A DNA stretch of 64,000 bases from a virus (Duplodnaviria; Caudoviricetes): positions 1 to 64,000 of IMG/VR virus record IMGVR_UViG_3300026735_000021; one strand, 5' to 3'. The notes below the pieces were generated by a model. That model was not told the origin of the DNA and did not search any database. It saw only the letters and a program-made list of their open reading frames with translations. Below are positions 16,894-62,233 of this stretch, one piece after another. The position numbers and the translations under genes are program-made. How positions within the stretch are numbered: position 1 is the first letter of the stretch; every line of letters begins with the position of its first letter.

Positions 16894-17937
16894 ATGTTTG
16901 AAAAATATAAAGTATACCCAACATCGGCATTTGCTCAAATGCCCATCATACAATCCATTAAAGACGAAACAGAATGGACGGTATCAACCGACAACAAAAT
17001 ACCTGTTGACATGAAGTATTTCCTCGATACACAAGGCTCAGTAAAACCTGCTAATGTATTAGCAGATGAATATCCTCTTGTTAAATTAAAAGATATGGAT
17101 ATTCCCATGTTAGACGGAATCAACCGTACATATCACTTACAAGCTCAAAAAAATCGAATTTTCATGGTAGACGTAGAGCCAAAAGCCTCACCATCAATTC
17201 TTGAATCAGCCATCAATTTCCCAGCTAATTATAAAGAAATTTCAAAAAATGGAGGTGTCCACCTTTTAATTAAAGTTCCAGAATCACTTATTAATGATGA
17301 AAACAAGTATTTATTCGACGGAACTGTATTTAAATCTGAAAAAGGTGACTTTGAATATATTTTCAATAATCACTTTATTACTTTCACTAAACGCATTGTC
17401 TTTGATAAGTCCCTTACTAACTTTAACGAAAACACTAAAGAATATGAACAACTCAAAGGCTTATTAATATCTATTGTTGAAATGGACAAAGAACGTAAGA
17501 AATTAAGAGATGCAGCTCGACTTGAAAAAGCGAAATACAAACCAAATGATATTCACACAAACTTAGTTGATCGTATTATGAAAGCTACTGTTATCAAAAA
17601 TGCAATAAAACGACAAAAAGAGCAAGAAGATTCAAACAATGATGACTCTCGTTTTGAACGTAAAATAGCCGTAGCTTGTGCTGGACAAGTAGAATATTTA
17701 CTAAACTATCTCAACACAATGCCACAAAGTCGTATTCTCTTTAAAGATTTCAATGATTCAGACGAAATAGAAACAATTCACCGTATGTTGATTGAAATAC
17801 TAGAGCATCGACCTAAACATGATGAATATAGATACGGTATGCCGTGGCTAATATATCAAGCATCAGAAAGTCTAACTTTTGTAAGATCACAAAAACGTAT
17901 TAAAGAATTAGAAAAGAAAGAAGCTAAGAAAAAATGA
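16894..17937 (+). CDS. Archaeo-eukaryotic primase (prim-pol) superfamily protein
   Basis: MVDVE (DxE), EISKNGGVHLL (SxxGxH) and EYIFNNHFITFT match AEP motifs I-III. Confidence 0.7.
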   Translation: MFEKYKVYPTSAFAQMPIIQSIKDETEWTVSTDNKIPVDMKYFLDTQGSVKPANVLADEYPLVKLKDMDIPMLDGINRTYHLQAQKNRIFMVDVEPKASPSILESAINFPANYKEISKNGGVHLLIKVPESLINDENKYLFDGTVFKSEKGDFEYIFNNHFITFTKRIVFDKSLTNFNENTKEYEQLKGLLISIVEMDKERKKLRDAARLEKAKYKPNDIHTNLVDRIMKATVIKNAIKRQKEQEDSNNDDSRFERKIAVACAGQVEYLLNYLNTMPQSRILFKDFNDSDEIETIHRMLIEILEHRPKHDEYRYGMPWLIYQASESLTFVRSQKRIKELEKKEAKKK

Positions 17938-18827
17938 CACTAAAAAAACCACTAATTGTTGGAGCAATTATTCTATCAGGACTTACCCTTGCGGGCTGTT
18001 CTAATAATAAATCAAATGATAAAGCTGAAATCATTGCTACAATGAAAGGCAAACAAGTAAATAGTCAAGAATTATATTCAGATATTAAAACCAACACATA
18101 TGCACAAAGTGCCATCAAGGATGCTCTCGTAACAGATGCATTCAACCAATTATATGCCGATAAAGTATCAGACAAAACGGTCAATTCGTTAGTATCAAAG
18201 GCAAAAGCCTCATATGGTGATAATTTCAAATCAATATTAACATCAAACAATATGACGGAAAATGAATACATAAAAACACTTAAAAAACAAGCCGTAGTTG
18301 AATATGGACTTAGACAAAACATTGATGTTTCAAAGGCTGATATGGAAAAAACATGGAAAAACTTCCACCCTGAATCAAATATTCAAATTGCCAAATTCAA
18401 TGATGAAACCAAAGCCAAAGACTTTGCAAAAAATGCAAAAACGGGTGACTTTGTGGGACTTGCTAACAAATCAGCTGTTAATAAAAATGATATTGCAGCC
18501 AAAGTTGACTCAGGCTCAGACACAATTCCAACGGAAGTCCAAGCCCAATTATGGAAACTTAAAAATGGAGAAATATCTAATGTAATCACTACAACCGATT
18601 CATCATACCAATCAACCTATTATGTTGTGAAAATGGTAAAATTGGGAGATAAAGGTTCTGACATGAAAAAATATGAAAAACGAATCAAAGAAATCACTCA
18701 AACTAGCAAATTGACAAATACTGACACAATGAATGCTACTATTGGTAAAGTACTCAAAAAAGCCAATTTCCAAATGAAAGATAAAGATTTATCAACGCTT
18801 ATGACATCATATCTTTCAACCAAATAA
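17934..18827 (+). CDS. prsA: PrsA-like foldase lipoprotein
   Basis: Lipobox LTLAGC, IATMKG, parvulin-like region (GDFVGLA, GEISNVITT, YYVVKM). Confidence 0.85.
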   Translation: MTLKKPLIVGAIILSGLTLAGCSNNKSNDKAEIIATMKGKQVNSQELYSDIKTNTYAQSAIKDALVTDAFNQLYADKVSDKTVNSLVSKAKASYGDNFKSILTSNNMTENEYIKTLKKQAVVEYGLRQNIDVSKADMEKTWKNFHPESNIQIAKFNDETKAKDFAKNAKTGDFVGLANKSAVNKNDIAAKVDSGSDTIPTEVQAQLWKLKNGEISNVITTTDSSYQSTYYVVKMVKLGDKGSDMKKYEKRIKEITQTSKLTNTDTMNATIGKVLKKANFQMKDKDLSTLMTSYLSTK

Positions 18828-19133: not shown

Positions 19134-19675
19134 AATATATACCAATTAGGCATATCAATCGAATGTTTCCATTTGAATTTTTTCAAGAACTCAATGAACG
19201 ATGGGATCAATGGGTACCAGAAAATCCGGCATTTACTATTCCATACACTACGTCATTCAAATTTTTAAAAGATTTTGACAAAAAAGCTATATTCACAGAA
19301 ACTCGAAATAAGCCTGACGCAAAAACGTTACGGGAAATCATTGCAAAACACAATATTATCAATTTAGATTTATTTCCTGTATTAATAATTGAACCATATG
19401 TGAAAAAAGAATTAATTAACACTCAGACGGGGAAAGTGGGCAGCACCAACTCAGACTTCCTCGTTGTTCAATATTTTGACTCAACGCATCGTCCTATTTT
19501 TGCAAATGATGTAACACTTGAATCAATTCGGCCAATACCCGAAATTTTATTTGATGACCCAAATCTATTTATTGGTGTAACCACATTCTCAGAAGAAGAT
19601 GGAGACTCTCAAATTGCCGTACTTCGAGCGCCTGACTTCATAGCTGACAATTTAACAACAGGAGAAACAAAATGA
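19130..19675 (+). CDS. Hypothetical protein
   Basis: 4-nt overlaps with both neighbours. Confidence 0.65.
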   Translation: MKYIPIRHINRMFPFEFFQELNERWDQWVPENPAFTIPYTTSFKFLKDFDKKAIFTETRNKPDAKTLREIIAKHNIINLDLFPVLIIEPYVKKELINTQTGKVGSTNSDFLVVQYFDSTHRPIFANDVTLESIRPIPEILFDDPNLFIGVTTFSEEDGDSQIAVLRAPDFIADNLTTGETK

Positions 19676-20352
19676 AATATCCATTAATAAAAGCACCATC
19701 TTGGCGACTTTTTATCCAAAAAGAATTTTACCAAGCCATTGGTATGATGGCAATGTCACAATTAGTTCTCCTTGTTGCAGCATTAATCCCCGAATATCCA
19801 AAAGCAAGTATAGCCTTAAATATTTTAGTAATGGCATTAACTCTTTTGACAATTATATTCGCATATAAAATCATTAAGACACAAGATGCATTAGATAACA
19901 AACCAAAAACAATTAATTTTAGTTGGAAACATTATGCTCTTTCCGTATTGGCTCTCGTCGGATACCTCTACATACAACCTGTCATTTCATCTCTATTCAA
20001 AATAGCGCAAGAATCACAAACAAACCAAGAATCAATAAACAGTATGATTTCAGCCGCGCCACTTGCAATGTTTATATGTGTTTCTATCATTGCCCCAATA
20101 TGTGAAGAATTAACATTTAGATTGCTATTGCCTAAATCATTCGGCAATTCAATTGTAGTATTCATCATCATGTCTATCTTATTTACAGCATTACACACAC
20201 CAAATGGAATATCCGGCTGGATGTCATATGGATTATTAGCCGTAATTCTTTTATCTACTCGGCTATTATCAGATAATATAACAAATAGTATTGCCACCCA
20301 TATTTCATGGAATTCCTTTACATTTTTATTATCGATACTACTTATTAAGTAA
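19672..20352 (+). CDS. CPBP (CAAX/Abi) family intramembrane metalloprotease
   Basis: Multiple TM helices, APICEELTFR, FTALH, IATHISWN. Confidence 0.9.
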   Translation: MKYPLIKAPSWRLFIQKEFYQAIGMMAMSQLVLLVAALIPEYPKASIALNILVMALTLLTIIFAYKIIKTQDALDNKPKTINFSWKHYALSVLALVGYLYIQPVISSLFKIAQESQTNQESINSMISAAPLAMFICVSIIAPICEELTFRLLLPKSFGNSIVVFIIMSILFTALHTPNGISGWMSYGLLAVILLSTRLLSDNITNSIATHISWNSFTFLLSILLIK

Positions 20353-20368: not shown

Positions 20369-21874
20369 ATGAAGAAAAAACGTCAAATCAAAAATAAGAA
20401 TACATATAATTCGGATTCCATTATAATAAAAGCGGGTCAATGGTTTTTACAATCAAAACCCGCAAAAATAGCAACAGCTGGAATCTTAATAATAACAATA
20501 GGTGGCATACTTCTTTATAGACCAGCTATATCAACACTATTACATTATCAATTAAATTCAAAATCAAATGAATTAATGAATAATGAGCTAAATCCAAATA
20601 TTAAAAAATTAAATGAGATCAATAAACAGATAAATAGTCTATATGCCTATTCATCTAAACCATCATCTGATTATGCCACATCTATTATAAATAATTCAAC
20701 AAATAAAAAATTATCAATTGATGACTCTGATATGTATGCTGATATTAAATATGATGGATCAATCGATCTTGTTCAAAATAAAATATCAAAAGAAACATTT
20801 GATCCAAACAATGCCGCCAAATATACACAAAGTTTCATTAAAGCCTCTATATCAACGGATAATATTTCAAAATTAAAATTAGACTGGCAAAATATAAAGA
20901 AATTAACTATTCCTAAAATAAAAAATGACTCATTAAAATCTCAATTTAAAAAAGAAATCAAAGACTATAACAATACTAATGATTTAATCAATAATTTAAT
21001 TTTAAAATTCAAAACAGAGCAAGCTTTAAATTCATATACGGAAAATCCTGTATATACCACGCCTAAAGTTGATACAAAAGCTCCAATTTCTAAGCCAATA
21101 TCAGATAACGATATAAAATCACTAAAGAATGATATTTCCGATATTGATAAATACTCTGACGCAAATGTTCTACTTGTTGATAAATACACATTAGCCCTAA
21201 AATCAATAACAGATCAATCAGCAATTGCAAATTCAGTCATACAATTGATAAGTAAAGCAAAATCAGATCCATCAATTGAAACAATTAAAGCCGTAAATGA
21301 TCAATTAAATAAAATGCTTGACTCAACATTAAAATCAACGTATAGCGATCAACTCAAACCTATACAACAAGATTTTAATAAAAAACTCAACGAGGAAAAG
21401 GCTGCAAAAGCCAAATCTGATGAGAAAGCAAAACTAAAAAAAGAAAATGATGAATTGAAAAAAGAACTAGATAAAGCTAAACAATCTAGTTCATCAGTAG
21501 CATCTAGTTCTGATACTAAAAATTCCTCAACAACCGCGTCTTTTTCAGATAATCAATCACAAACGCAAACATCAACCACATCCGTCATAGACCTATCACC
21601 CAAAGCATCGTCACAAGGATTTGTATCTAATCCATCTGAGAACACCACGGTTAAATTAGGAGATACATCCATCATCCAAACAAATTTAGATATAACCAAT
21701 TGGCAAAAAGGTCAAATTCAAACATTCAAATTGAATGGTGCAAATCTAACAAAAACAATATCAGATACGCAAGATATTAATAAATCAAATCCAACTCGAT
21801 TATCTAAATCAGATGGATTAATTATTGCCAAATTTATAAACAATGACACATTGAGACTATATTACCTCGATTAA
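20369..21874 (+). CDS. Membrane-anchored extracellular protein with a coiled coil and Ser/Thr-rich linker
   Basis: Single N-terminal TM helix, coiled coil, SSSSVASSS linker, small C-terminal domain. Confidence 0.65.
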   Translation: MKKKRQIKNKNTYNSDSIIIKAGQWFLQSKPAKIATAGILIITIGGILLYRPAISTLLHYQLNSKSNELMNNELNPNIKKLNEINKQINSLYAYSSKPSSDYATSIINNSTNKKLSIDDSDMYADIKYDGSIDLVQNKISKETFDPNNAAKYTQSFIKASISTDNISKLKLDWQNIKKLTIPKIKNDSLKSQFKKEIKDYNNTNDLINNLILKFKTEQALNSYTENPVYTTPKVDTKAPISKPISDNDIKSLKNDISDIDKYSDANVLLVDKYTLALKSITDQSAIANSVIQLISKAKSDPSIETIKAVNDQLNKMLDSTLKSTYSDQLKPIQQDFNKKLNEEKAAKAKSDEKAKLKKENDELKKELDKAKQSSSSVASSSDTKNSSTTASFSDNQSQTQTSTTSVIDLSPKASSQGFVSNPSENTTVKLGDTSIIQTNLDITNWQKGQIQTFKLNGANLTKTISDTQDINKSNPTRLSKSDGLIIAKFINNDTLRLYYLD

Positions 21875-21900: not shown

Positions 21901-21929
21901 TTGATATTTCAACAGATATGTGATATACT
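21901..21929 (+). promoter_or_regulatory. sigmaA-type promoter of the sec cluster
   Basis: TTGATA, 17-nt spacer, TG-A-TATACT. Confidence 0.7.
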
Positions 21930-21962
21930 TGTTTTGTTTAAAAATGAAAGGATCATGGTTAA

Positions 21963-24350
21963 ATGTCAAAATTACAAGAATCTTTATTTAAAAATCAAGA
22001 CAAAACCTATAACAAAAAATTAACAAATACAGTTAATCATATTCGTCAGATTGAGCATCAATATTCAACATTCGATGATATTCAATTGAAAGATGAATTC
22101 AAATCATTATTAACGGATATTCAATCCAACGTAAAATCAATAAACACAGCAATGCCTAATGTATTTGCGTTAATCTCAGTTGCCGCAACTCGAACACTAA
22201 ACATGACACCATACGACGTTCAAATTAAAGGCGCTATTGCTTTACATGAAGGTAACGTTGCCGAAATGAAAACAGGTGAAGGTAAAACATTAACAGCAAC
22301 AATGCCAATCATTTTAAATGCCATGTCTGGCAAAGGCGTTCATGTTGTAACCGTAAACGAATATTTAGCAAAACGTGATGTTACTCTATTATCACCTCTA
22401 TATAACTTCTTTAATCTCAGTATCGGGTTAAATTTAAACAATATGACAGCATACGATAAACGTATTGCCTATCAATCAGACATCATGTATTCAACAGCTA
22501 ATGAATTAGGCTTTGACTATTTACGAGATAATATGGTCAAAGACGCGGCTGAACGCGTAAGTCAACGGCCTCGTAATTTTGCGTTGATTGATGAAGTCGA
22601 TTCAATCTTAATTGATGAAGCCAAAACACCATTAATTATTGCTCAAATGAGTGCTCCAGCGTTAAAAGATTATATCCAAGCTGACCAGTTCGTTACAACT
22701 CTTAAAGATGACGATTATGAGATCGATCTTGAATCAAAATCTGTACATTTAACAAAAAGCGGTGAAATCAAAGCCAATAGTTATTTTAAAAAAGAGTCCG
22801 TATATGATGCCAAGAACACATCAATTATGCATCGAATAAATCAAGCCTTACAAGCTCGATTAATCCAAAAACTTGATGTGGATTACGCTATCATTCAAAA
22901 TCCTGAAAATCCAAATAATAAAGATATTGTTATTATAGACCAATTCACAGGACGGATTATGCCTGGTCGTCGATTCAATAATGGATTACATCAAGCATTA
23001 GAAGCCAAACACGCAAAAGACGGTGTAGCTATTCAAGATGAAACAGTAACAACCGCAACAATTACACTTCAAAATTTCTTTAGATTATATAACAAAATTT
23101 CTGGAATGAGTGGAACAGCTAAAACAGAAGAAGATGAATTTTCTGAAATTTACAACATGCGCGTTATTCCAATTGAAACGAATAAACCTCTTGCTCGGAT
23201 TGACTACGATCTTGAATTGTATTCAACAAAAGAAGGAAAATGGAATGCAATTGTTAATAGAATCAAAATCATTAACAAGAAAAAACAACCAATTTTGGTT
23301 GGAACATCATCCGTAAAAGATAGCGAATTGTTATCAAAACGACTAAAAGCCGAAAAAATAGAACACGTTGTTTTAAATGCCAAGCAAGATGAGCATGAAG
23401 CTCAAATTATAGCCCTTGCCGGAAATCAATCAGCCGTAACTATCGCCACCAATATGGCAGGTCGAGGAACAGACATCAAACTGGGTGAAAATGTTAAAGA
23501 ACTTGGTGGTTTATTTGTCCTTAGTACTGAATTAAATGATAGTCGTCGAATCGACGAACAATTAAAAGGTAGAGCCGGTAGGCAAGGCGATCCGGGAGCA
23601 ACATTAACAATTGCGTCATTACAGGATAATTTGTTCCAACGATTTGGCGCTCAATCAATACAAGACAAATTAATAGCATCTTGGCCAAAAGATAAACCAT
23701 TAACTCTAAACAAAACCGTCATAAAAATCCTACTTGATGCTCAAAAACGAGTGGAAGGATCGAACTATGATTCCCGAAAATCAACCCTTCAATATGATGA
23801 CATTGTCCGAGAACAACGAACAATATATTATTTAGATCGAAACATCGTTGTTAATGCAAAAACGGTAGATGAATTAATACCACACATTAAAAAAGTCACA
23901 TTAGCAATTGAACAAAACCCTGACCTTAGAGATAAATCCCAATGGCTCAATTGGAAAGATCACCATAACAATAAATCCTTAACTGACGTTACGCTTGACA
24001 CATTAGATAAAATGCCTGAAACAATAGCATTAGAAACAATTAAAGCTATTATTCTAAGCGCAATGGACGCATCTTGGATTGATCATATTGATGCTCTTGA
24101 CAAATTAAGATCAGGAATTAGTTACCGAAGTTACTCAGGTACAAACCCCGTTATTGCGTATCAAACCGAAGCCGCAGAATTATATAATAATCTCATAAAT
24201 TCAGTATACAAAACCGAAGGTCAAAATTACTTACGACTCCAATCCTATAAACCTCAAGAACGATCAGATGTTTATGATAATCAATTTAGTAAATCAATAA
24301 AAGGCTCTAAAACAAAATCAATGAAGAATTTTGTACGAACATTACATTAA
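21963..24350 (+). CDS. secA: Preprotein translocase ATPase SecA (compact, 795 aa)
   Basis: EMKTGEGKT, HVVTVNEYLA, IDEVDSILIDEA, GRIMPGRRF, TNMAGRGTDI, QLKGRAGRQGDPG; no C-terminal Zn-binding tail. Confidence 0.97.
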   Translation: MSKLQESLFKNQDKTYNKKLTNTVNHIRQIEHQYSTFDDIQLKDEFKSLLTDIQSNVKSINTAMPNVFALISVAATRTLNMTPYDVQIKGAIALHEGNVAEMKTGEGKTLTATMPIILNAMSGKGVHVVTVNEYLAKRDVTLLSPLYNFFNLSIGLNLNNMTAYDKRIAYQSDIMYSTANELGFDYLRDNMVKDAAERVSQRPRNFALIDEVDSILIDEAKTPLIIAQMSAPALKDYIQADQFVTTLKDDDYEIDLESKSVHLTKSGEIKANSYFKKESVYDAKNTSIMHRINQALQARLIQKLDVDYAIIQNPENPNNKDIVIIDQFTGRIMPGRRFNNGLHQALEAKHAKDGVAIQDETVTTATITLQNFFRLYNKISGMSGTAKTEEDEFSEIYNMRVIPIETNKPLARIDYDLELYSTKEGKWNAIVNRIKIINKKKQPILVGTSSVKDSELLSKRLKAEKIEHVVLNAKQDEHEAQIIALAGNQSAVTIATNMAGRGTDIKLGENVKELGGLFVLSTELNDSRRIDEQLKGRAGRQGDPGATLTIASLQDNLFQRFGAQSIQDKLIASWPKDKPLTLNKTVIKILLDAQKRVEGSNYDSRKSTLQYDDIVREQRTIYYLDRNIVVNAKTVDELIPHIKKVTLAIEQNPDLRDKSQWLNWKDHHNNKSLTDVTLDTLDKMPETIALETIKAIILSAMDASWIDHIDALDKLRSGISYRSYSGTNPVIAYQTEAAELYNNLINSVYKTEGQNYLRLQSYKPQERSDVYDNQFSKSIKGSKTKSMKNFVRTLH

Positions 24351-24387
24351 TGCACGTAGAAGCCATATTTATCCCATATGAGAAAGG

Positions 24388-24957
24388 TTGCAAATGGCCA
24401 AGGCAAATAGACCAAACATAAAATCAAGAACAACAGGGGGCATTATAATTGCCCTCATCATTATAGCTCTAGTTTTTCTCGGAATTAGATTTTTACCACC
24501 AGCCTATCAGGTCATGAAACAAGCAGATGCCACACCCTTTGAGGCTAAAATATTAACATTCAGAAAAGATGCGAAACAAGCACTGACGAACACGCCGAAC
24601 AAAGAAATTGACACAATTGCAACAGATCAATCACAAATTCATAAACCCGGCATGATCATATTCTATAAAATAAATTGCCCATTTTGTGAAGCCGCACATC
24701 AGGCAATTGAATCAAAAATCAAAGCTGTAAATACAACATCAGGTCGAAAAAATATTGTTTTTGTAAATGTTGAATCAGATTTAGGAAAAAAACTCGTTAA
24801 AAAATATAACATTCGATATGCCGCATCAATTACAATATTAAACAAACAAGGTAAATCATTCAACTTTACCCAGGCAGCCTTAGATGATAAACATAACCAT
24901 GTGGCGGATAACGATAGTATAAATAACGCATTTGACAAATATGCATCACTATTTTGA
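24388..24957 (+). CDS. Membrane-anchored thioredoxin-fold protein
   Basis: N-terminal TM helix and a CPFC motif. Confidence 0.75.
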   Translation: MQMAKANRPNIKSRTTGGIIIALIIIALVFLGIRFLPPAYQVMKQADATPFEAKILTFRKDAKQALTNTPNKEIDTIATDQSQIHKPGMIIFYKINCPFCEAAHQAIESKIKAVNTTSGRKNIVFVNVESDLGKKLVKKYNIRYAASITILNKQGKSFNFTQAALDDKHNHVADNDSINNAFDKYASLF

Positions 24958-24968
24958 AAGGTAACATC

Positions 24969-25115
24969 ATGAAGAAAACCAAATTTCCAATTAAATGGTT
25001 AACTCCAAAAGAAATAGTCAACATCACAACAAATGTTGTGATAATGGCTTGTTTCACTACAATATTCACAGCAGGAATTGCAGCTGGAATTGCATACCTC
25101 ATTAGTTTAATATAA
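24969..25115 (+). CDS. secE: SecE-like translocon subunit (48 aa, not in the ORF track)
   Basis: MKKTKFPIKWLTPKEIVNITTNVVIMACFTTIFTAGIAAGIAYLISLI; KWLTPKE resembles the SecE V.WP..kE motif and is followed by one TM helix; RBS GAAAGG; immediately upstream of secY. Confidence 0.75.
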   Translation: MKKTKFPIKWLTPKEIVNITTNVVIMACFTTIFTAGIAAGIAYLISLI

Positions 25116-25132
25116 AGGGAAAGGAGCAATAA

Positions 25133-26383
25133 ATGCTGTCAACACTCAAAAACGCAATCAAAATTAAAGATGTACAAAAAAGAATCCTATACACATTTGG
25201 AATCCTCATTATATTTCAAATTGGAATACATATACCATTGCCCGGAATTGATGCTAGTAAAATAGCATCATTACAAAATAATTCACTATTTTCAATGTTA
25301 AACTTAACATCAGGTGGAGCAATGGAATCATTTGGATTATTAGCACTAGGTGCATCACCTTACATCACAGCAAGTATTGTTATTCAATTGTTAGCTCAAG
25401 GTATTTTTCCAAAATACACGCTATTTTCTAAACAAGGGCGTGTTGGTCAACAGAAACTAGCAACAAGAACTAGATTTTTAACTCTAGTTTTTGGCTTTTT
25501 TCAAGCCATGACCTTAATGTCAACACTTCAATATTTAAAAACCCTAGGCTTTGCCCCATCATTTAATTTCACAACTAAAATGCTAATGTGCTTAGTTTTA
25601 GGAATGACATCATTATTTGTGGCATATCTAGGCGAAATGATAAATGAAAATGGTATCGGAAATGGATTATCATTAATCATTGCATCTGGTATTCTTGTTA
25701 ATGTCCCATCTTCAATTAATCAATGGATTTCCGATTACTTCATCAATACGAAAATATCAGCAAATTCCTTCATGGATATGGGTCTAATTATAATCTTGAT
25801 TATAGCCCTCATTTTATTTACCGTATATATCAACTCAGCTGAATGTCGAATTCCATTGCAATCCATGCAGAGTCCAAATCAAACAAACGCCCATTATTTA
25901 CCAATAAAATTAATGGCTGGTTCTGTTATTCCAGTCATATTTGCATCAAGTATCATTTCCATTGGCTCAATGATTACAACAGCTACAGGTAAAACGTATT
26001 CGTTCTTGAATTACAATACACTTGAAGGCGGATCATTATACGCTATTATGATTCTATTATTTGCTTATTTCTACAACGTGGCTCAAATCAATCCCGATAA
26101 AGTAGCCGATAATTTAGAAAAATCAAGTATGTATATCAAAGGCGTACCGCAATCAGAAAATGTATCATTTATTGGTAAAACCGTTATACGATTAACAAAC
26201 ATTGGTGCGCCTGCTCTTGTATTTATTGTAATGATTCCAATTATTATCACAAATACAACAAATATAACAACCCTTGATGGTGTGAGCGGAACAGGACTAC
26301 TTATTGTTGTGGGTGTGTTCACTGAGTTATATTCACAAATTAATGGTCTTGCCGCAAAACATCAATACCCACACATTCTCTAA
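25133..26383 (+). CDS. secY: Preprotein translocase channel SecY
   Basis: HIPLPG, LALGASPYITASIVIQLL, GIGNGLSLII, YLPIKL, AGSVIPVIFASSI, GTGLLIVVGV. Confidence 0.96.
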   Translation: MLSTLKNAIKIKDVQKRILYTFGILIIFQIGIHIPLPGIDASKIASLQNNSLFSMLNLTSGGAMESFGLLALGASPYITASIVIQLLAQGIFPKYTLFSKQGRVGQQKLATRTRFLTLVFGFFQAMTLMSTLQYLKTLGFAPSFNFTTKMLMCLVLGMTSLFVAYLGEMINENGIGNGLSLIIASGILVNVPSSINQWISDYFINTKISANSFMDMGLIIILIIALILFTVYINSAECRIPLQSMQSPNQTNAHYLPIKLMAGSVIPVIFASSIISIGSMITTATGKTYSFLNYNTLEGGSLYAIMILLFAYFYNVAQINPDKVADNLEKSSMYIKGVPQSENVSFIGKTVIRLTNIGAPALVFIVMIPIIITNTTNITTLDGVSGTGLLIVVGVFTELYSQINGLAAKHQYPHIL

Positions 26384-26395
26384 GAAAGGAATAAT

Positions 26396-26623
26396 ATGCT
26401 AATTTTAATTTACACATTACTATTGATTCTTAGTTTTATTATGGTAATTCTCATCATGAGCCAACCATCAAACCAAGAAACTTTAACAAGTGCGTTCACT
26501 GGCGGATCTAATCTTTTCAAGGAGAACAAGGTTCGAGGTATACAAAAAACACTTAAAAAGTATACTCTAATCACAGCATTACTAATTGCTATACTTGGAT
26601 TAGTATCACAATTCATACTATAA
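26396..26623 (+). CDS. secG: Preprotein translocase subunit SecG
   Basis: Two TM helices flanking ILIMSQPSN...SAFTGGSNLF...RG...L.K.T. Confidence 0.9.
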   Translation: MLILIYTLLLILSFIMVILIMSQPSNQETLTSAFTGGSNLFKENKVRGIQKTLKKYTLITALLIAILGLVSQFIL

Positions 26624-26657
26624 GAGATAGAGTGTAATGCTCTATCTCTTTTTTTTT
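26622..26657 (+). terminator. Intrinsic terminator closing the sec cluster
   Basis: AAGAGATAGAG-TGTAATG-CTCTATCTCTT plus T tract. Confidence 0.85.
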
Positions 26658-26671
26658 AAGGAAATATTATC

Positions 26672-28094: not shown

Positions 28095-28895
28095 TTATTC
28101 ACGACGGAAACCCGCACCTAATGTTGATTCCCAAAATGTTGCCCATTTTCCAGCATTACTCATAACTGAGAAATTGCCCATAAATGCGTCCATTGCATAT
28201 TTGGGCGCTTCTTTTTTATCCCATTTAGACACAAGTTCACCTTGCACAACTCGTCGATATTCTGAATTAAAAGAATTACAAGTGACTAATGTTACTACAG
28301 GTTTGCCTCTATCCGTAGCTACACTATCATCTAAAACATCACTTTGCCATCGAGACACAGCTACTGTATTGTACACTCTATACTGATACACATGATCAAC
28401 ATCATTCAGCCAGATGTCCATACCTACCGTAACAACGTCTAATGGTGTAAATAACAAATAAGGATTGGCTAATCGATGACTACCTAATGAATAATTACCT
28501 TTACCCATAACTTCGCCCGGTTTCATTGTAGCCGCACCACTAACAGCATTCAAATTTGTTAAACCATCAAGGACAGGCAACAACATCCCTCTAGCTTGAG
28601 GTATAGATACTTCACCAACTAATTGAACATCACCATCATCAATAGCTTGGGCCGCAGCCGAAACCGACGCTTGATTATAATCTACAATTTTATCTTGTTT
28701 CCATCCCGTTCCATCCGGTTTAGATTTTGGCTTGACCATTTCCTGAGTCAATAATTTCTGAGGCTCACGTAATGTTTTCCAATATTTGACATTTGGATAC
28801 AAAAAAGTGGCAGAACCAACAAGAAGAAGAAGTATTCCTAATAATATATATATCTTATTACGTTTTTTTTTATTTTTCTTTTTTTTGTCTACCAT
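28095..28895 (-). CDS. srtA: Class A sortase
   Basis: N-terminal anchor, GNYSLGSH, VTLVTC and the downstream Arg (EYRRVV). Confidence 0.9.
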   Translation of the reverse strand: MVDKKKKNKKKRNKIYILLGILLLLVGSATFLYPNVKYWKTLREPQKLLTQEMVKPKSKPDGTGWKQDKIVDYNQASVSAAAQAIDDGDVQLVGEVSIPQARGMLLPVLDGLTNLNAVSGAATMKPGEVMGKGNYSLGSHRLANPYLLFTPLDVVTVGMDIWLNDVDHVYQYRVYNTVAVSRWQSDVLDDSVATDRGKPVVTLVTCNSFNSEYRRVVQGELVSKWDKKEAPKYAMDAFMGNFSVMSNAGKWATFWESTLGAGFRRE

Positions 28896-45382: not shown

Positions 45383-46108
45383 TTGAAAGGAATCAAAATG
45401 CACACTAAAATCACATTTCAATCAGAAACCGACTGTATTACTATTAAATCATTAATGGGGATTATACCCAATTCAATAATCGATCCTAATATACTTATAC
45501 CAAAACCAAAAATACTCGAAGAATTTACATCAAGTGTAAATACAGATAAAAGTCAACAGTATGTGGCCTACTATTTGTCATCACTTCCAAAAAATATTCG
45601 AGATAAAATGCTTATTAAATTAAATAAAATACACCTTAATGACTCGGACAAAAGCGAACGCGATAACATTGAACCAAAAATAAACCAATTTTTGCACCCA
45701 TTATTATTATTAGAATGGCTTCGTATAAATAAATCATACGGATATGGCTACACCATATCAAATCAAAAAGAAATAGGAAAAAAATTGTTTGAAGCCATAA
45801 TTTCATGCCAATCTTATGACCTACCTCAATGGCTATTTTCTAATTGGGGAACAAAATGGCAACCAGAATTAGTATCTCAATCAGATCTGTCTATTTTATT
45901 CATTACGGCTGACACTCACCCATTTAAATATATAAGGAAATTATCGGAAAAAGCACCAAATATAGAAATGTATATTGATTTTGCTGATGAATCTCCTTTC
46001 AATAATACATTTGGAAACTATCTCATTCATAATGGTAATACCTCGATATTAGAACAAAAACCAAAATATGAAATTTTATCAAAAATAAAAAAAGGATATA
46101 ATTCATGA
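45383..46108 (+). CDS. DUF1281/YubB-like protein
   Basis: WLFSNWGTKW...FITA.T.P motif; likely ATG 45398. Confidence 0.65.
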   Translation: MKGIKMHTKITFQSETDCITIKSLMGIIPNSIIDPNILIPKPKILEEFTSSVNTDKSQQYVAYYLSSLPKNIRDKMLIKLNKIHLNDSDKSERDNIEPKINQFLHPLLLLEWLRINKSYGYGYTISNQKEIGKKLFEAIISCQSYDLPQWLFSNWGTKWQPELVSQSDLSILFITADTHPFKYIRKLSEKAPNIEMYIDFADESPFNNTFGNYLIHNGNTSILEQKPKYEILSKIKKGYNS

Positions 46109-46983
46109 AAAAAATTACCACAATATCAATTGCATTATTAGCTGCACTTTTAACTCTAACCGGTTGTTCTCAAATTAAAAACAATATTGACATCAAAAAA
46201 CAAGATGACAAATCAAAAACAGTAAACATTACCCAGCCATCAGTTGACAGCCACAAGAATTGGCCCAACCAAGCAACCGCAGCATATATCAGAGACAAAG
46301 ATGATATCAATAATATCACTAAATATCCAGAATATCATAAAGAAGTCAAGCCATTCATCACAACAAATGACCACGTAAAAACAAAAGAACAATGGACAAG
46401 GTACGACAAGCTTGACTCATTAGGTCGAGCTACAATGGCTACAGGTCTAATCAACAAAAATACACTTCTTGCTCAAAAAGATCTTGGCCGTCCACCCTTT
46501 TCTTCATCTTTAGTTATTGCCGGTGAACGCACCCCTAATCGTTTCACAGATAAATGGGAAAACGTATCAGGGTCTAAATCAAACAATCAAAAAGTCAATT
46601 TAAAAATGGCTAAATCATCATACAATGGTTGGCTTTATAACAAAAGCCATTTATTAGCATGGTCTCTAGGTGGAGATATGACCGACCATAATCTTATTCT
46701 CGGAACTCGTGCTCAAAATGTAGGATCAAACTACTCAAAAGACCCGGGTGGAATGAGCTATATCGAAACAAAAACTCGAGACTACCTTTATGCTAATGAT
46801 AAAGCTATAGTATTATATACAGCAATTCCCGTATATGACGGTGATGAATTATTACCTCGTGCTGTTTATGTTGAAGCCTATGATATTGATAATCCATCTA
46901 AATTTTCAATTGGAACATGGATATCAAATCAACAACAAGGTGTGTCTATTAACTACACCACAGGTGAAGCCAAAATCAAATAA
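46105..46983 (+). CDS. DNA/RNA non-specific endonuclease lipoprotein (streptodornase-like)
   Basis: Lipobox LTLTGC, LDSLGRAT, KSHLLAWSLGG, NLILGTRAQN, PVYDGDELLPR. Confidence 0.88.
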   Translation: MKKITTISIALLAALLTLTGCSQIKNNIDIKKQDDKSKTVNITQPSVDSHKNWPNQATAAYIRDKDDINNITKYPEYHKEVKPFITTNDHVKTKEQWTRYDKLDSLGRATMATGLINKNTLLAQKDLGRPPFSSSLVIAGERTPNRFTDKWENVSGSKSNNQKVNLKMAKSSYNGWLYNKSHLLAWSLGGDMTDHNLILGTRAQNVGSNYSKDPGGMSYIETKTRDYLYANDKAIVLYTAIPVYDGDELLPRAVYVEAYDIDNPSKFSIGTWISNQQQGVSINYTTGEAKIK

Positions 46984-61165: not shown

Positions 61166-62233
61166 ATGGAAAATAATTCGGATAGAATGGGGTTCGCATT
61201 AATCGCACTTAGCGTAGTAGCTTTTGTGTTACTTGCTGTGAATGGCCCATTGAAATCTACCGTCGGTGGCTTTTTTAATGGCTTTAACAATTGGCAAGAA
61301 TCGACATTTAGTCAAATCTTGAATAAAATTAATCCTAATGACGCTAAGTGGGTCACAAAAGGCGACTGGGGCTCAAATAGTAAATTTGTTGTAGATAAAG
61401 ATGGTAATGCTGTGATTTATGCGATGGATGCATCGAAACCGATCATATTTCATAATATGGCGTCTGAAAATGCAAAATTACCAAAAGATACCTTGACAAC
61501 GCTTACCTTTCAGGATAAGGTTCAAGGTGACACAAATAGTTCAATGGCGAGCGCATTTTCTTATAATAGATATAGAAATCTCAAGACCATCCATAATTTG
61601 GATACGAATGTCGATACATCTAATGTTATGGATATGAGTTGGATGTTCTATAATTCAAAGCTAACATTAGTTGGTGATTTGAGTCAATGGAATACATCGA
61701 AGGTGACTAATATGGATTCAATGTTCAGTCATTCAAAGCTAACATCAATTGGTGATTTGAGTCAATGGAACACATCGAATGTTAAGGATATGAGTTTTAT
61801 GTTCATTGGTTCACAGTTAAACTCAGTTGGTGATTTGAGTAAATGGAATACGTCAAATGTGACGAATATGGGGTATATGTTCAGTTTTTCAAAGCTAACA
61901 TCAGTTGGTGATTTGAGTCAATGGAATATGTCAAAAGTGACTGCTATGGGTGATATGTTCTATGATTCAAAGCTAACATCAGTTGGTGATTTGAGTCAAT
62001 GGAATACGTCAAATGTGACGAATATGGGTGAGATGTTCACGAATTCAAAGCTAACATCAGTTGGTGATTTGAGTAAATGGAATACGTCAAATGTGACTAC
62101 GATGAAAGGGGCGTTCAGTTCTTCAGAGTTAACGTCAGTTGGAGATTTGAGTAAATGGAATACATCGAATGTTACGGATATGAGATATATGTTCCGTGAT
62201 TCAAAGCTAACGCCACCATCATGGTATCATTGA
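61166..62233 (+). CDS. BspA/DUF285-type leucine-rich-repeat surface protein with a short hydrophobic leader
   Basis: Seven full and one partial 26-aa repeats (NTSNVTNM..MF..SKLTSVGDLSQW); TGATATAAT promoter at 61121-61129. Confidence 0.9.
   Translation: MENNSDRMGFALIALSVVAFVLLAVNGPLKSTVGGFFNGFNNWQESTFSQILNKINPNDAKWVTKGDWGSNSKFVVDKDGNAVIYAMDASKPIIFHNMASENAKLPKDTLTTLTFQDKVQGDTNSSMASAFSYNRYRNLKTIHNLDTNVDTSNVMDMSWMFYNSKLTLVGDLSQWNTSKVTNMDSMFSHSKLTSIGDLSQWNTSNVKDMSFMFIGSQLNSVGDLSKWNTSNVTNMGYMFSFSKLTSVGDLSQWNMSKVTAMGDMFYDSKLTSVGDLSQWNTSNVTNMGEMFTNSKLTSVGDLSKWNTSNVTTMKGAFSSSELTSVGDLSKWNTSNVTDMRYMFRDSKLTPPSWYH
61613..62217. repeat. 78-bp coding tandem repeats of the BspA-like gene
   Basis: GTTGGTGATTTGAGT(C/A)AATGGAA recurs every 78 bp. 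Confidence 0.9.

Follow-up and report, generated by a model that had tools for sequence, protein, structure and literature searches.

The first 64 kb of an 86.6-kb linear 'virus' record in IMG/VR (IMGVR_UViG_3300026735_000021), a stretch of 64,000 nucleotides that we call the window, carries at positions 21901-26657 an intact operon that likely encodes a second Sec translocase, complete and of canonical type. Besides SecA, SecE, SecY and SecG the operon specifies a thioredoxin-like protein, and it would serve the export of envelope proteins. The record itself looks like part of a giant, plasmid-like conjugative element, with a lactic acid bacterium as its probable host. An earlier note on this DNA had proposed that a complete and divergent SecA-SecE-SecY-SecG set lies here on a mobile element, outside the spc or nusG context of the chromosomal genes, and the analysis bears this out.

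Organization and recurrence of the sec operon

Five genes are tightly packed on the plus strand, with a promoter-like site 5' of the first and a hairpin 3' of the last, as read from the open reading frame (ORF) listing and the sequence. They are secA (21963-24350; 795 amino acids (aa), canonical type), a membrane-anchored thioredoxin-like gene with a CPFC motif and weak thioredoxin-family scores (24394-24957), secE (24969-25115; 48 aa, a minimal form with a single transmembrane (TM) segment), secY (25133-26383; 416 aa, canonical type) and secG (26396-26623; 75 aa, two TM segments). The candidate promoter at 21901-21929, also on the plus strand, is of the sigma-70 type, with a -35 element TTGATA, a 17-nt spacer and an extended -10 element TG-n-TATACT; in a consensus scan it matched at 10 of 12 positions, with the TG in addition. 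An intrinsic terminator-like hairpin with a T run spans 26622-26659 on the same strand, the 13-pair hairpin itself occupying 26622-26650. Promoter, genes and terminator each lie exactly where the earlier note had put them. The G+C content of the operon (0.33-0.35) is like that of the remainder of the record.

The gene order recurs in independent metagenome assemblies from at least 11 different samples. In the closest lineage (L011-L013; longest contig 9 kb) SecY is 93% identical to that of the window and the synteny is the same. A second lineage (L004-L007 and L105-L108; SecY 72% identical, longest contig 150 kb) keeps the entire block from a PrsA-like gene to a UDG gene in the same order; one of its contigs, JARIFR010000037, comes from a metagenome assembly of khurunga fermented milk, not from a genome bin. 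In a third lineage (L008-L010; SecY 42% identical, longest contig 237 kb) the arrangement is secA-secE-secY-secG, without the CxxC gene, and in L008 a gene for an HU-type DNA-binding protein lies beside the set. A fourth (L014-L015; SecY 45% identical, contigs of 353-364 kb) has secA-secY-secG; within the 13 kb examined there, no SecE-like ORF was found by the profile of true SecE proteins described below. At 3794-7433 of L014, secA overlaps secY and secG follows, and the neighbours in this lineage include ParA/CbiA-type ATPase, NADAR, GmrSD, TadE and TrbL genes. More distant still, an alignment-based scan of IMG/VR returned SecY at about 30% identity on six records of 89-389 kb (L109-L114), while a single-protein scan of the same database for SecY relatives found none. 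In tests on five of these records, VirD4 turned up in the three larger ones, and a SecA match over the cut-off in none.

The flanking signals are conserved along with the genes. The -35 and the extended -10 (TG-n-TAYACT) keep their position in L012 and L013 and, within the 72% lineage, in L004 and L005, the surrounding spacer having diverged. A hairpin with a T run stands at the equivalent place in L011 and L012, where base changes preserve the pairing, and in L005, where the stem has another sequence. Across the five genes dN/dS ranges from 0.05 to 0.31 (secA, 0.05-0.18; the thioredoxin-like gene, 0.15-0.31; secE, 0.14-0.28; secY, 0.05-0.15; secG, 0.07-0.17), and by this measure all five are under purifying selection.

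SecA, SecY and SecG are of the canonical type

SecA passed the NCBIfam cut-offs for canonical SecA (NF009538, 833.6 bits against 814; TIGR00963, 807.8 against 800) and fell under those of four SecA2 models (TIGR03714, 658.8 against 930; TIGR04397, 733.6 against 1085; TIGR04221, 528.7 against 725; NF012136, 593.5 against 1100). Likewise, SecY passed the canonical cut-off (TIGR00967, 312.4 bits against 253.6) and stayed under both SecY2 cut-offs (TIGR02920, 121 against 249.6; NF009082, 135.6 against 353). These scores rule out a SecA2/SecY2 identity for the window genes; the set is not of the accessory type, from which the earlier note had set it apart.

The architecture of the proteins agrees with this assignment. 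SecA contains the Pfam domains SecA_DEAD, SecA_PP_bind, P-loop_SecA and SecA_SW, and among solved chains it matches SecA 1TF2/1M6N best (682 bits). Aligned to 1TF2, its Walker A, Walker B and arginine-finger motifs are intact (MKTGEGKT, DEVDSILIDEA, NMAGRGTDIKL). The protein is without the C-terminal Cys-rich zinc-finger tail, having no Cys in its final 40 residues; a 787-aa chromosomal SecA of Lactobacillaceae is likewise without it. The alignment of SecY with the solved SecY chains 8Y9Y/7XHA/5EUL (248 bits) runs over its whole length, residues 1-412 corresponding to residues 1-425 of chain 8Y9Y_Y, so that the full-length 10-TM architecture is covered. SecG scored 52.7 bits against TIGR00810 (cut-off 30.85) and 47.5 bits against Pfam SecG, with TM segments at residues 1 and 52.

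The thioredoxin-like gene likely starts at the ATG at 24394, after GAGAAAGG, and an in-frame TTG lies at 24388. Its product scored 21.3 bits against Pfam Thioredoxin, under the cut-off of 23.5, and matched a solved protein disulfide oxidoreductase (1A8L; E 1.2e-5). It has an N-terminal TM anchor and exactly two cysteines, both in the CPFC motif, and the stretch IIFYK-x-NCPFCEA around that motif is invariant across three lineages. The predicted structure was too poor for a fold search (mean predicted local distance difference test (pLDDT) 52.8), so the order of secondary structure elements alone was used; the predicted strand-CxxC-helix order fits the fold. The protein is probably an extracytoplasmic thiol-disulfide oxidoreductase.

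A 48-residue SecE

Between the thioredoxin-like gene and secY the earlier note had picked out a hidden SecE-like ORF of 48 aa (24969-25115). Judged by profile searches, conserved position and purifying selection, this ORF is a genuine SecE gene. A ribosome-binding site, GAAAGG, lies 7 nt upstream; the site, the 48-codon length and the position of the gene are conserved across the relatives, and most nucleotide differences fall at third codon positions. Public gene calls include the ORF at just one of 11 sister loci (L011; not L004-L007, L012, L013 or L105-L108). In L005 a 47-aa ORF overlaps secE in the +2 frame; we rejected it as a candidate gene, as it has no counterpart in L011-L013 and the codon-position pattern fits the secE frame.

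Scored directly, as the earlier note had suggested, the window ORF falls just under both curated cut-offs (Pfam SecE PF00584, 21.6 bits against 22.7; TIGR00964, 18.8 against 27.55), whereas its orthologue from the 72% lineage (L005; 62% identical) reaches 25.5 bits with Pfam SecE and passes, and profile comparisons also return SecE. When the 48-aa ORF was searched against 177,635 distinct solved chains, three SecE chains were the sole matches at E≤10. A family profile built from the ORF and its relatives matched the SecE chain 8YA0/7XHA/5EUL at E 5.9e-7, as well as a second SecE chain, 3DL8_C. Against 1.84 billion proteins the same profile gave nine matches, two being members of the family and five bona fide short SecE proteins (50-77 Pfam SecE bits). 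With a profile made from those bona fide SecE proteins only, the window ORF came out top of 2,420 six-frame pieces (E 4.6e-11), followed by the positional counterparts in L005 and L008 and, after these, by SecE genes of Lactobacillaceae megaplasmids. The true-SecE profile was made from proteins found via the element's own profile, and the two profile tests are therefore not fully independent. The reciprocal similarity covers the conserved W-x-x-x-K-E motif and the TM helix.

A structure prediction of the kind proposed in the earlier note for SecYEG was run on SecY with the 48-aa protein. It gave a weak positive score, 0.40 against 0.00 for the best of three controls, with contact agreement of at least 94% between runs and partner pLDDT of at least 69. 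Of 80 solved complexes 58 attain the mark applied, and of 110 mismatched pairs two do; of those that attain it, only seven solved complexes out of the 80 have a score of 0.60 or below, as have both of the mismatches that passed. Because SecYE complexes have already been solved, the pass may reflect likeness to them only.

Origin of the sec genes

Trees were built for SecY (24 rows) and SecA (19 rows); SecA2 and SecY2 rows were left out, the question of canonical versus accessory type resting on the NCBIfam scores. In the SecY tree all seven element copies group in a single clade (support 100/100, stem 0.80), which is nested among chromosomal copies from Lactobacillales in a larger clade, also with 100/100 support. 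The SecA tree likewise gathers the seven element copies into one clade (100/100, stem 0.66) inside its Lactobacillales part. Three SecY copies from Lactobacillaceae megaplasmids form a separate 100/100 clade, and so do the plasmid SecA copies. Identity to housekeeping SecA and SecY is 41-49%, the closest chromosomal SecY being just 41% identical. A comparison with chromosomal SecA and SecY, another of the checks named in the earlier note, thus returned divergent and long-branched element clades. On these trees, SecA and SecY each appear to have been captured once from a Lactobacillales-type source, with fast evolution thereafter.

The genomic context also differs from that of chromosomal copies. 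Every control chromosomal SecY gene stands in an rplO-secY-adk context, whereas the window has neither an rplO-secY-adk nor a nusG context, and the operon has no ribosomal-protein neighbours.

The carrying element

CheckV puts the completeness of the record at 58%. Beyond the window, the record holds a piece of a VirD4 coupling protein (TraG-D_C, T4SS-DNA_transf; partial ORF, 68967-70331 of the record, minus strand, equivalent to L002:4967-6331) and a piece of a MobL relaxase (partial ORF, 82373-83998, minus strand, equivalent to L002:18373-19998). The coupling protein and relaxase expected of a conjugative element are thus both represented. Scans of the record also found TnpB, a reverse transcriptase, an SNF2 helicase, NrdD/NrdG, UDG, GIY-YIG, MoxR- and Clp-type ATPases, UvrD- and RecD-like helicases, an ATP-dependent ligase, a D5-type primase, a lipoprotein nuclease, CpsB, a glycosyltransferase and a DUF285 protein, with homing endonucleases among the phage-like genes. 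No tRNA was found in the record. Nor did virion families (capsid, portal, terminase, tail) match any window ORF by Pfam or any of ten ORFs of the last 22.6 kb by PHROGs, in scans that were not dedicated to virion proteins. Based on the VirD4 and MobL pieces, the lack of tRNA and the lack of a virion match, we read the record as an incomplete giant element, plasmid-like and conjugative, that was filed as a virus.

The host of the element is probably a lactic acid bacterium. A scan of species genomes for secY returned chromosomal copies only, at no more than 37% identity, and no carrier genome. The IS605-type TnpB at window positions 33-1151 is 88% identical to one in a Lactococcus allomyrinae chromosome, a weak hint of host range. 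The presence of the 72% lineage in fermented milk is a second hint, likewise weak. The reverse transcriptase gene (window 3838-4800; 320 aa) is preceded by some 700 nt without a long ORF.

Envelope genes around the operon

From about 17.9 to 29.6 kb, the genes of the window are mainly for the cell envelope. A PrsA-like lipoprotein foldase gene (17934-18827, plus strand; N-terminus MTLKKPLIVGAIILSGLTLAGC, lipobox LAGC) scored 146-191 bits with NCBIfam PrsA models, all below the equivalog cut-offs, and is syntenic throughout the 72% lineage (L004-L007, L105-L108). Genes for a CPBP/Rce1-like intramembrane protease (19672-20352, plus strand; Pfam Rce1-like, 58.9 bits) and for a sortase with an N-terminal membrane anchor (28095-28895, minus strand; Pfam Sortase, 57.6 bits; TIGR01076, 40.6 against a cut-off of 39.35) are syntenic in the sister loci too. 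For the sortase, the highest-scoring class models are those of classes E and C, and it stays under the cut-offs of both. Near the operon there are, in addition, genes for a 142-aa anchored protein and a YdjM-family protein, and envelope-type products are encoded elsewhere in the window, namely a signal-peptide protein (5188-5991) and the anchored DUF285 protein (61166-62233).

Two further genes of this kind were noted. Immediately 5' of the sec promoter, 20369-21874 encodes a 501-aa single-pass membrane protein that is conserved in the sister loci and shows a faint likeness to the extracellular domains of the division-site protein MapZ (TM-score 0.41/0.51, from a poor model). A DNA/RNA non-specific endonuclease encoded at 46105-46983 bears a lipoprotein signal, LTLTGC, and would be a surface-tethered nuclease.

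Function of the element-borne translocase

We favour the reading that the operon encodes a second, canonical-type Sec translocase that would handle envelope proteins. SecA and SecY, from a Lactobacillales-type ancestor, would have been inherited with the elements while evolving fast under purifying selection. SecA, SecY, SecE and SecG would assemble in the host membrane beside the host's own Sec machine, where they would export or insert envelope proteins, above all the membrane-anchored, lipoprotein and secreted products of the element. The PrsA-like foldase, CxxC oxidoreductase, CPBP protease and sortase would then fold, oxidize, process and anchor what is exported. That the translocase exports the element's own substrates we infer from its gene neighbours, which encode PrsA, the CPBP protease, the sortase and membrane-anchored proteins.

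Several observations weigh against this reading. The direct SecE scores of the 48-aa ORF are, as given above, under both curated cut-offs, and long-branch attraction, flagged for SecA, could inflate the monophyly of the element clades. Signal peptidase, YidC and SRP/FtsY were not found in the 86.6-kb record, so the Sec machine is not self-sufficient; the 'self-contained' translocon of the earlier note is complete in its SecA/SecE/SecY/SecG set and lacks these partners in the 86.6 kb. (Trigger factor, sought as Trigger_N, was not found in the record either.) A simple motif scan found no LPXTG-type sortase substrate in the fragment.

The operon may also encode a spare general translocase with no substrate preference, which would give the element independence of its host, added capacity, or export after conjugation into a new host. 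We consider this a live possibility, though not a probable one. Its genes are of the canonical type, many genes of the element encode membrane-anchored products, and the element duplicates many further functions of a housekeeping kind (NrdDG, ligase, Clp-type ATPases, helicases). However, signal peptidase, YidC and SRP were not found in the fragment, and one would expect a copy that has to work with generic partners of the host to lie closer to the host proteins than the 41-49% identity observed.

Alternatively, the operon could form a narrow, dedicated export route, comparable to SecA2/SecY2, for a few element surface proteins that host Sec handles poorly, such as adhesins or mating-pair factors. 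The long stems of SecA and SecY resemble those of specialized paralogues, sortase, PrsA and the CxxC protein stay closely linked to the operon in different lineages, and there are precedents in the accessory Sec (aSec) system with Asp4/Asp5 (PMC5076819) and in the sec operon of Hodor megaplasmids, which is proposed to export giant surface proteins (PMC12934698). Set against these points, the equivalog cut-offs that SecA and SecY clear are the canonical ones, and both proteins fall short in all of the SecA2/SecY2 models. In addition, the aSec components Asp1-3, GtfA/B and serine-rich repeat proteins had no match by Pfam, NCBIfam or PHROGs among the submitted ORFs (window ORFs of at least about 90 aa and ten ORFs from the remaining 22.6 kb, thus not every small ORF, in a record that lacks part of the element), and the fragment yielded no candidate for a giant substrate. 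We judge such a route unlikely.

It is very unlikely that the record is a jumbo phage in which the Sec genes would handle membrane or lysis proteins of the phage. While the IMG/VR classification and the phage-like replication genes (D5 primase-helicase, NrdDG, homing endonucleases) speak for a phage, the scanned ORFs gave no capsid, portal, terminase or tail match, in scans that were not virion-dedicated and with 42% of the element missing; moreover, the VirD4 and MobL pieces are present, and other IMG/VR 'viruses' with SecY also carry VirD4. Finally, a host chromosome or chimeric assembly with ordinary housekeeping sec genes, which the canonical type of the genes and the incomplete linear contig (CheckV 58%) might suggest, can be rejected on context and recurrence, given the same gene order in independent assemblies of at least 11 samples, the lack of the rplO-secY-adk or nusG context found for every control, flanks with conjugation and mobile-element genes, and a closest chromosomal SecY at 41%.

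A more far-reaching proposal can be put forward tentatively. The secA-(secE)-secY-secG set could be an old, single-origin 'third Sec system' of several deeply diverged families of Lactobacillales giant conjugative elements (contigs of 150 to ~360 kb), a substrate-specific channel that these elements would need for their own surface proteins, for example in mating-pair formation or host-cell remodelling, and hence a core function rather than cargo. We regard this proposal as speculative and doubtful in its full form.

Relation to known systems

Sec genes borne on mobile elements have been recorded before. Annotated secG-secE-secA-secY clusters are present in RefSeq on megaplasmids of L. crispatus (NZ_CP047143) and L. 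kefiranofaciens (pWW1, NC_015598), and for the L. reuteri LL7 megaplasmid (NZ_CP041677), whose gene table lists secG, secA and secY and not secE, a 2020 paper noted a 'third SecY-SecA system' (secY3-secA3; PMC7446861). The claim of the earlier note that such a set is unusual for a plasmid or phage was overstated in view of these megaplasmid clusters and of two publications (PMC7446861 and PMC12934698); that the window holds a mobile-borne Sec set is real. Like the window, the Lactobacillaceae megaplasmids, of 137-200 kb, have clustered canonical secG/secE/secA/secY genes apart from the chromosomal ones, with SecA and SecY copies that form long-branched clades inside Lactobacillales. They differ in gene order (G-E-A-Y, against A-trx-E-Y-G here), in having no CxxC gene in the cluster, in SecY (33-36% identical to that of the window) and in SecG, which is part of a protein of ~290 aa there and a normal-length 75-aa protein here.

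Two features of these plasmids were observed in passing. On the LL7 plasmid, an ORF between secG and secA (L099:3127-3300) matches the SecE profile at E 8e-4 and is probably an unlisted secE. The megaplasmid secG genes (L016:3476-4342, L099:2250-3131, L100:2522-3403) encode about 290 residues, four times the normal length, SecG being seemingly fused to another domain.

Hodor megaplasmids, described in a 2026 preprint, carry SecY-SecG-SecE with trigger factor and sortase B, for which export of giant surface proteins was proposed; the paper makes no mention of SecA (PMC12934698). The record resembles them as a giant conjugative element with its own Sec channel beside a sortase in a surface-protein module, and IMG/VR lists elements of this sort as viruses too: its six SecY records of 89-389 kb resemble the published Hodor megaplasmids. 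In contrast to Hodor, the element described here has SecA, a CxxC oxidoreductase, PrsA and a MobL-type relaxase, no Trigger_N match in the record, and a SecY about 30% identical to that of the Hodor-type IMG/VR records. The window therefore does not hold a Hodor surface module, having SecA, no Trigger_N and a sortase that scores best with class E/C models, below their cut-offs.

The aSec system of streptococci and staphylococci likewise has an additional SecA/SecY pair, small partners that resemble SecE and SecG, and a link to surface-protein display. Unlike the window set, which is canonical by the models, it is chromosomal and consists of SecA2-SecY2-Asp1-5. The statement in the earlier note that SecA2/SecY2 uses Asp proteins rather than SecE and SecG was imprecise, since SecY2 has SecE- and SecG-like partners in Asp4 and Asp5 (PMC5076819). 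With the housekeeping SecA/SecYEG of Bacilli, the window proteins share domain architecture, catalytic motifs and best solved matches (1TF2/1M6N, 8Y9Y/7XHA/5EUL); they differ in identity (41-49%), in a SecE cut to 48 aa, in a SecA without the zinc-finger tail, and in that the four genes lie in one mobile operon instead of at four chromosomal sites.

Inocles are giant extrachromosomal elements of oral Streptococcus for which sortase and signal peptidase have been reported; the main text describing them makes no mention of SecA/SecY (PMC12340149). Shared with Inocles are a G+C content of 32%, a giant plasmid-like nature, VirD4, sortase A, many cell-wall and membrane genes and a Lactobacillales host, which is a probable one for the element described here (PMC12340149). 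The Inocle marker InoC (about 454 aa, with a PF13814 domain) had no match in the 86.6 kb of a record that is about 58% complete, and the published Inocle primer had no exact match in IMG/VR.

Taken together, element-borne Sec is already on record, and what is distinct here is the separate clades of SecA and SecY, the A-trx-E-Y-G design, the inclusion of SecA and the CxxC oxidoreductase inside the operon.

Significance

Sec genes are commonly regarded as single-copy chromosomal housekeeping genes and serve as phylogenetic markers. Recurrent complete SecAYEG sets on giant mobile elements, including those of fermented milk, can mislead marker-based binning and taxonomy. The window also suggests that SecE may be as short as 48 residues, in ORFs of a size that gene callers routinely miss. 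Looking ahead, the operon provides a compact natural secretion module of five genes that can be tested in Lactococcus or Lactobacillus production strains. For the biology of the elements themselves, the gene content suggests that they may be able to remodel the surface of the cells that carry them through an export, folding and anchoring line of their own.

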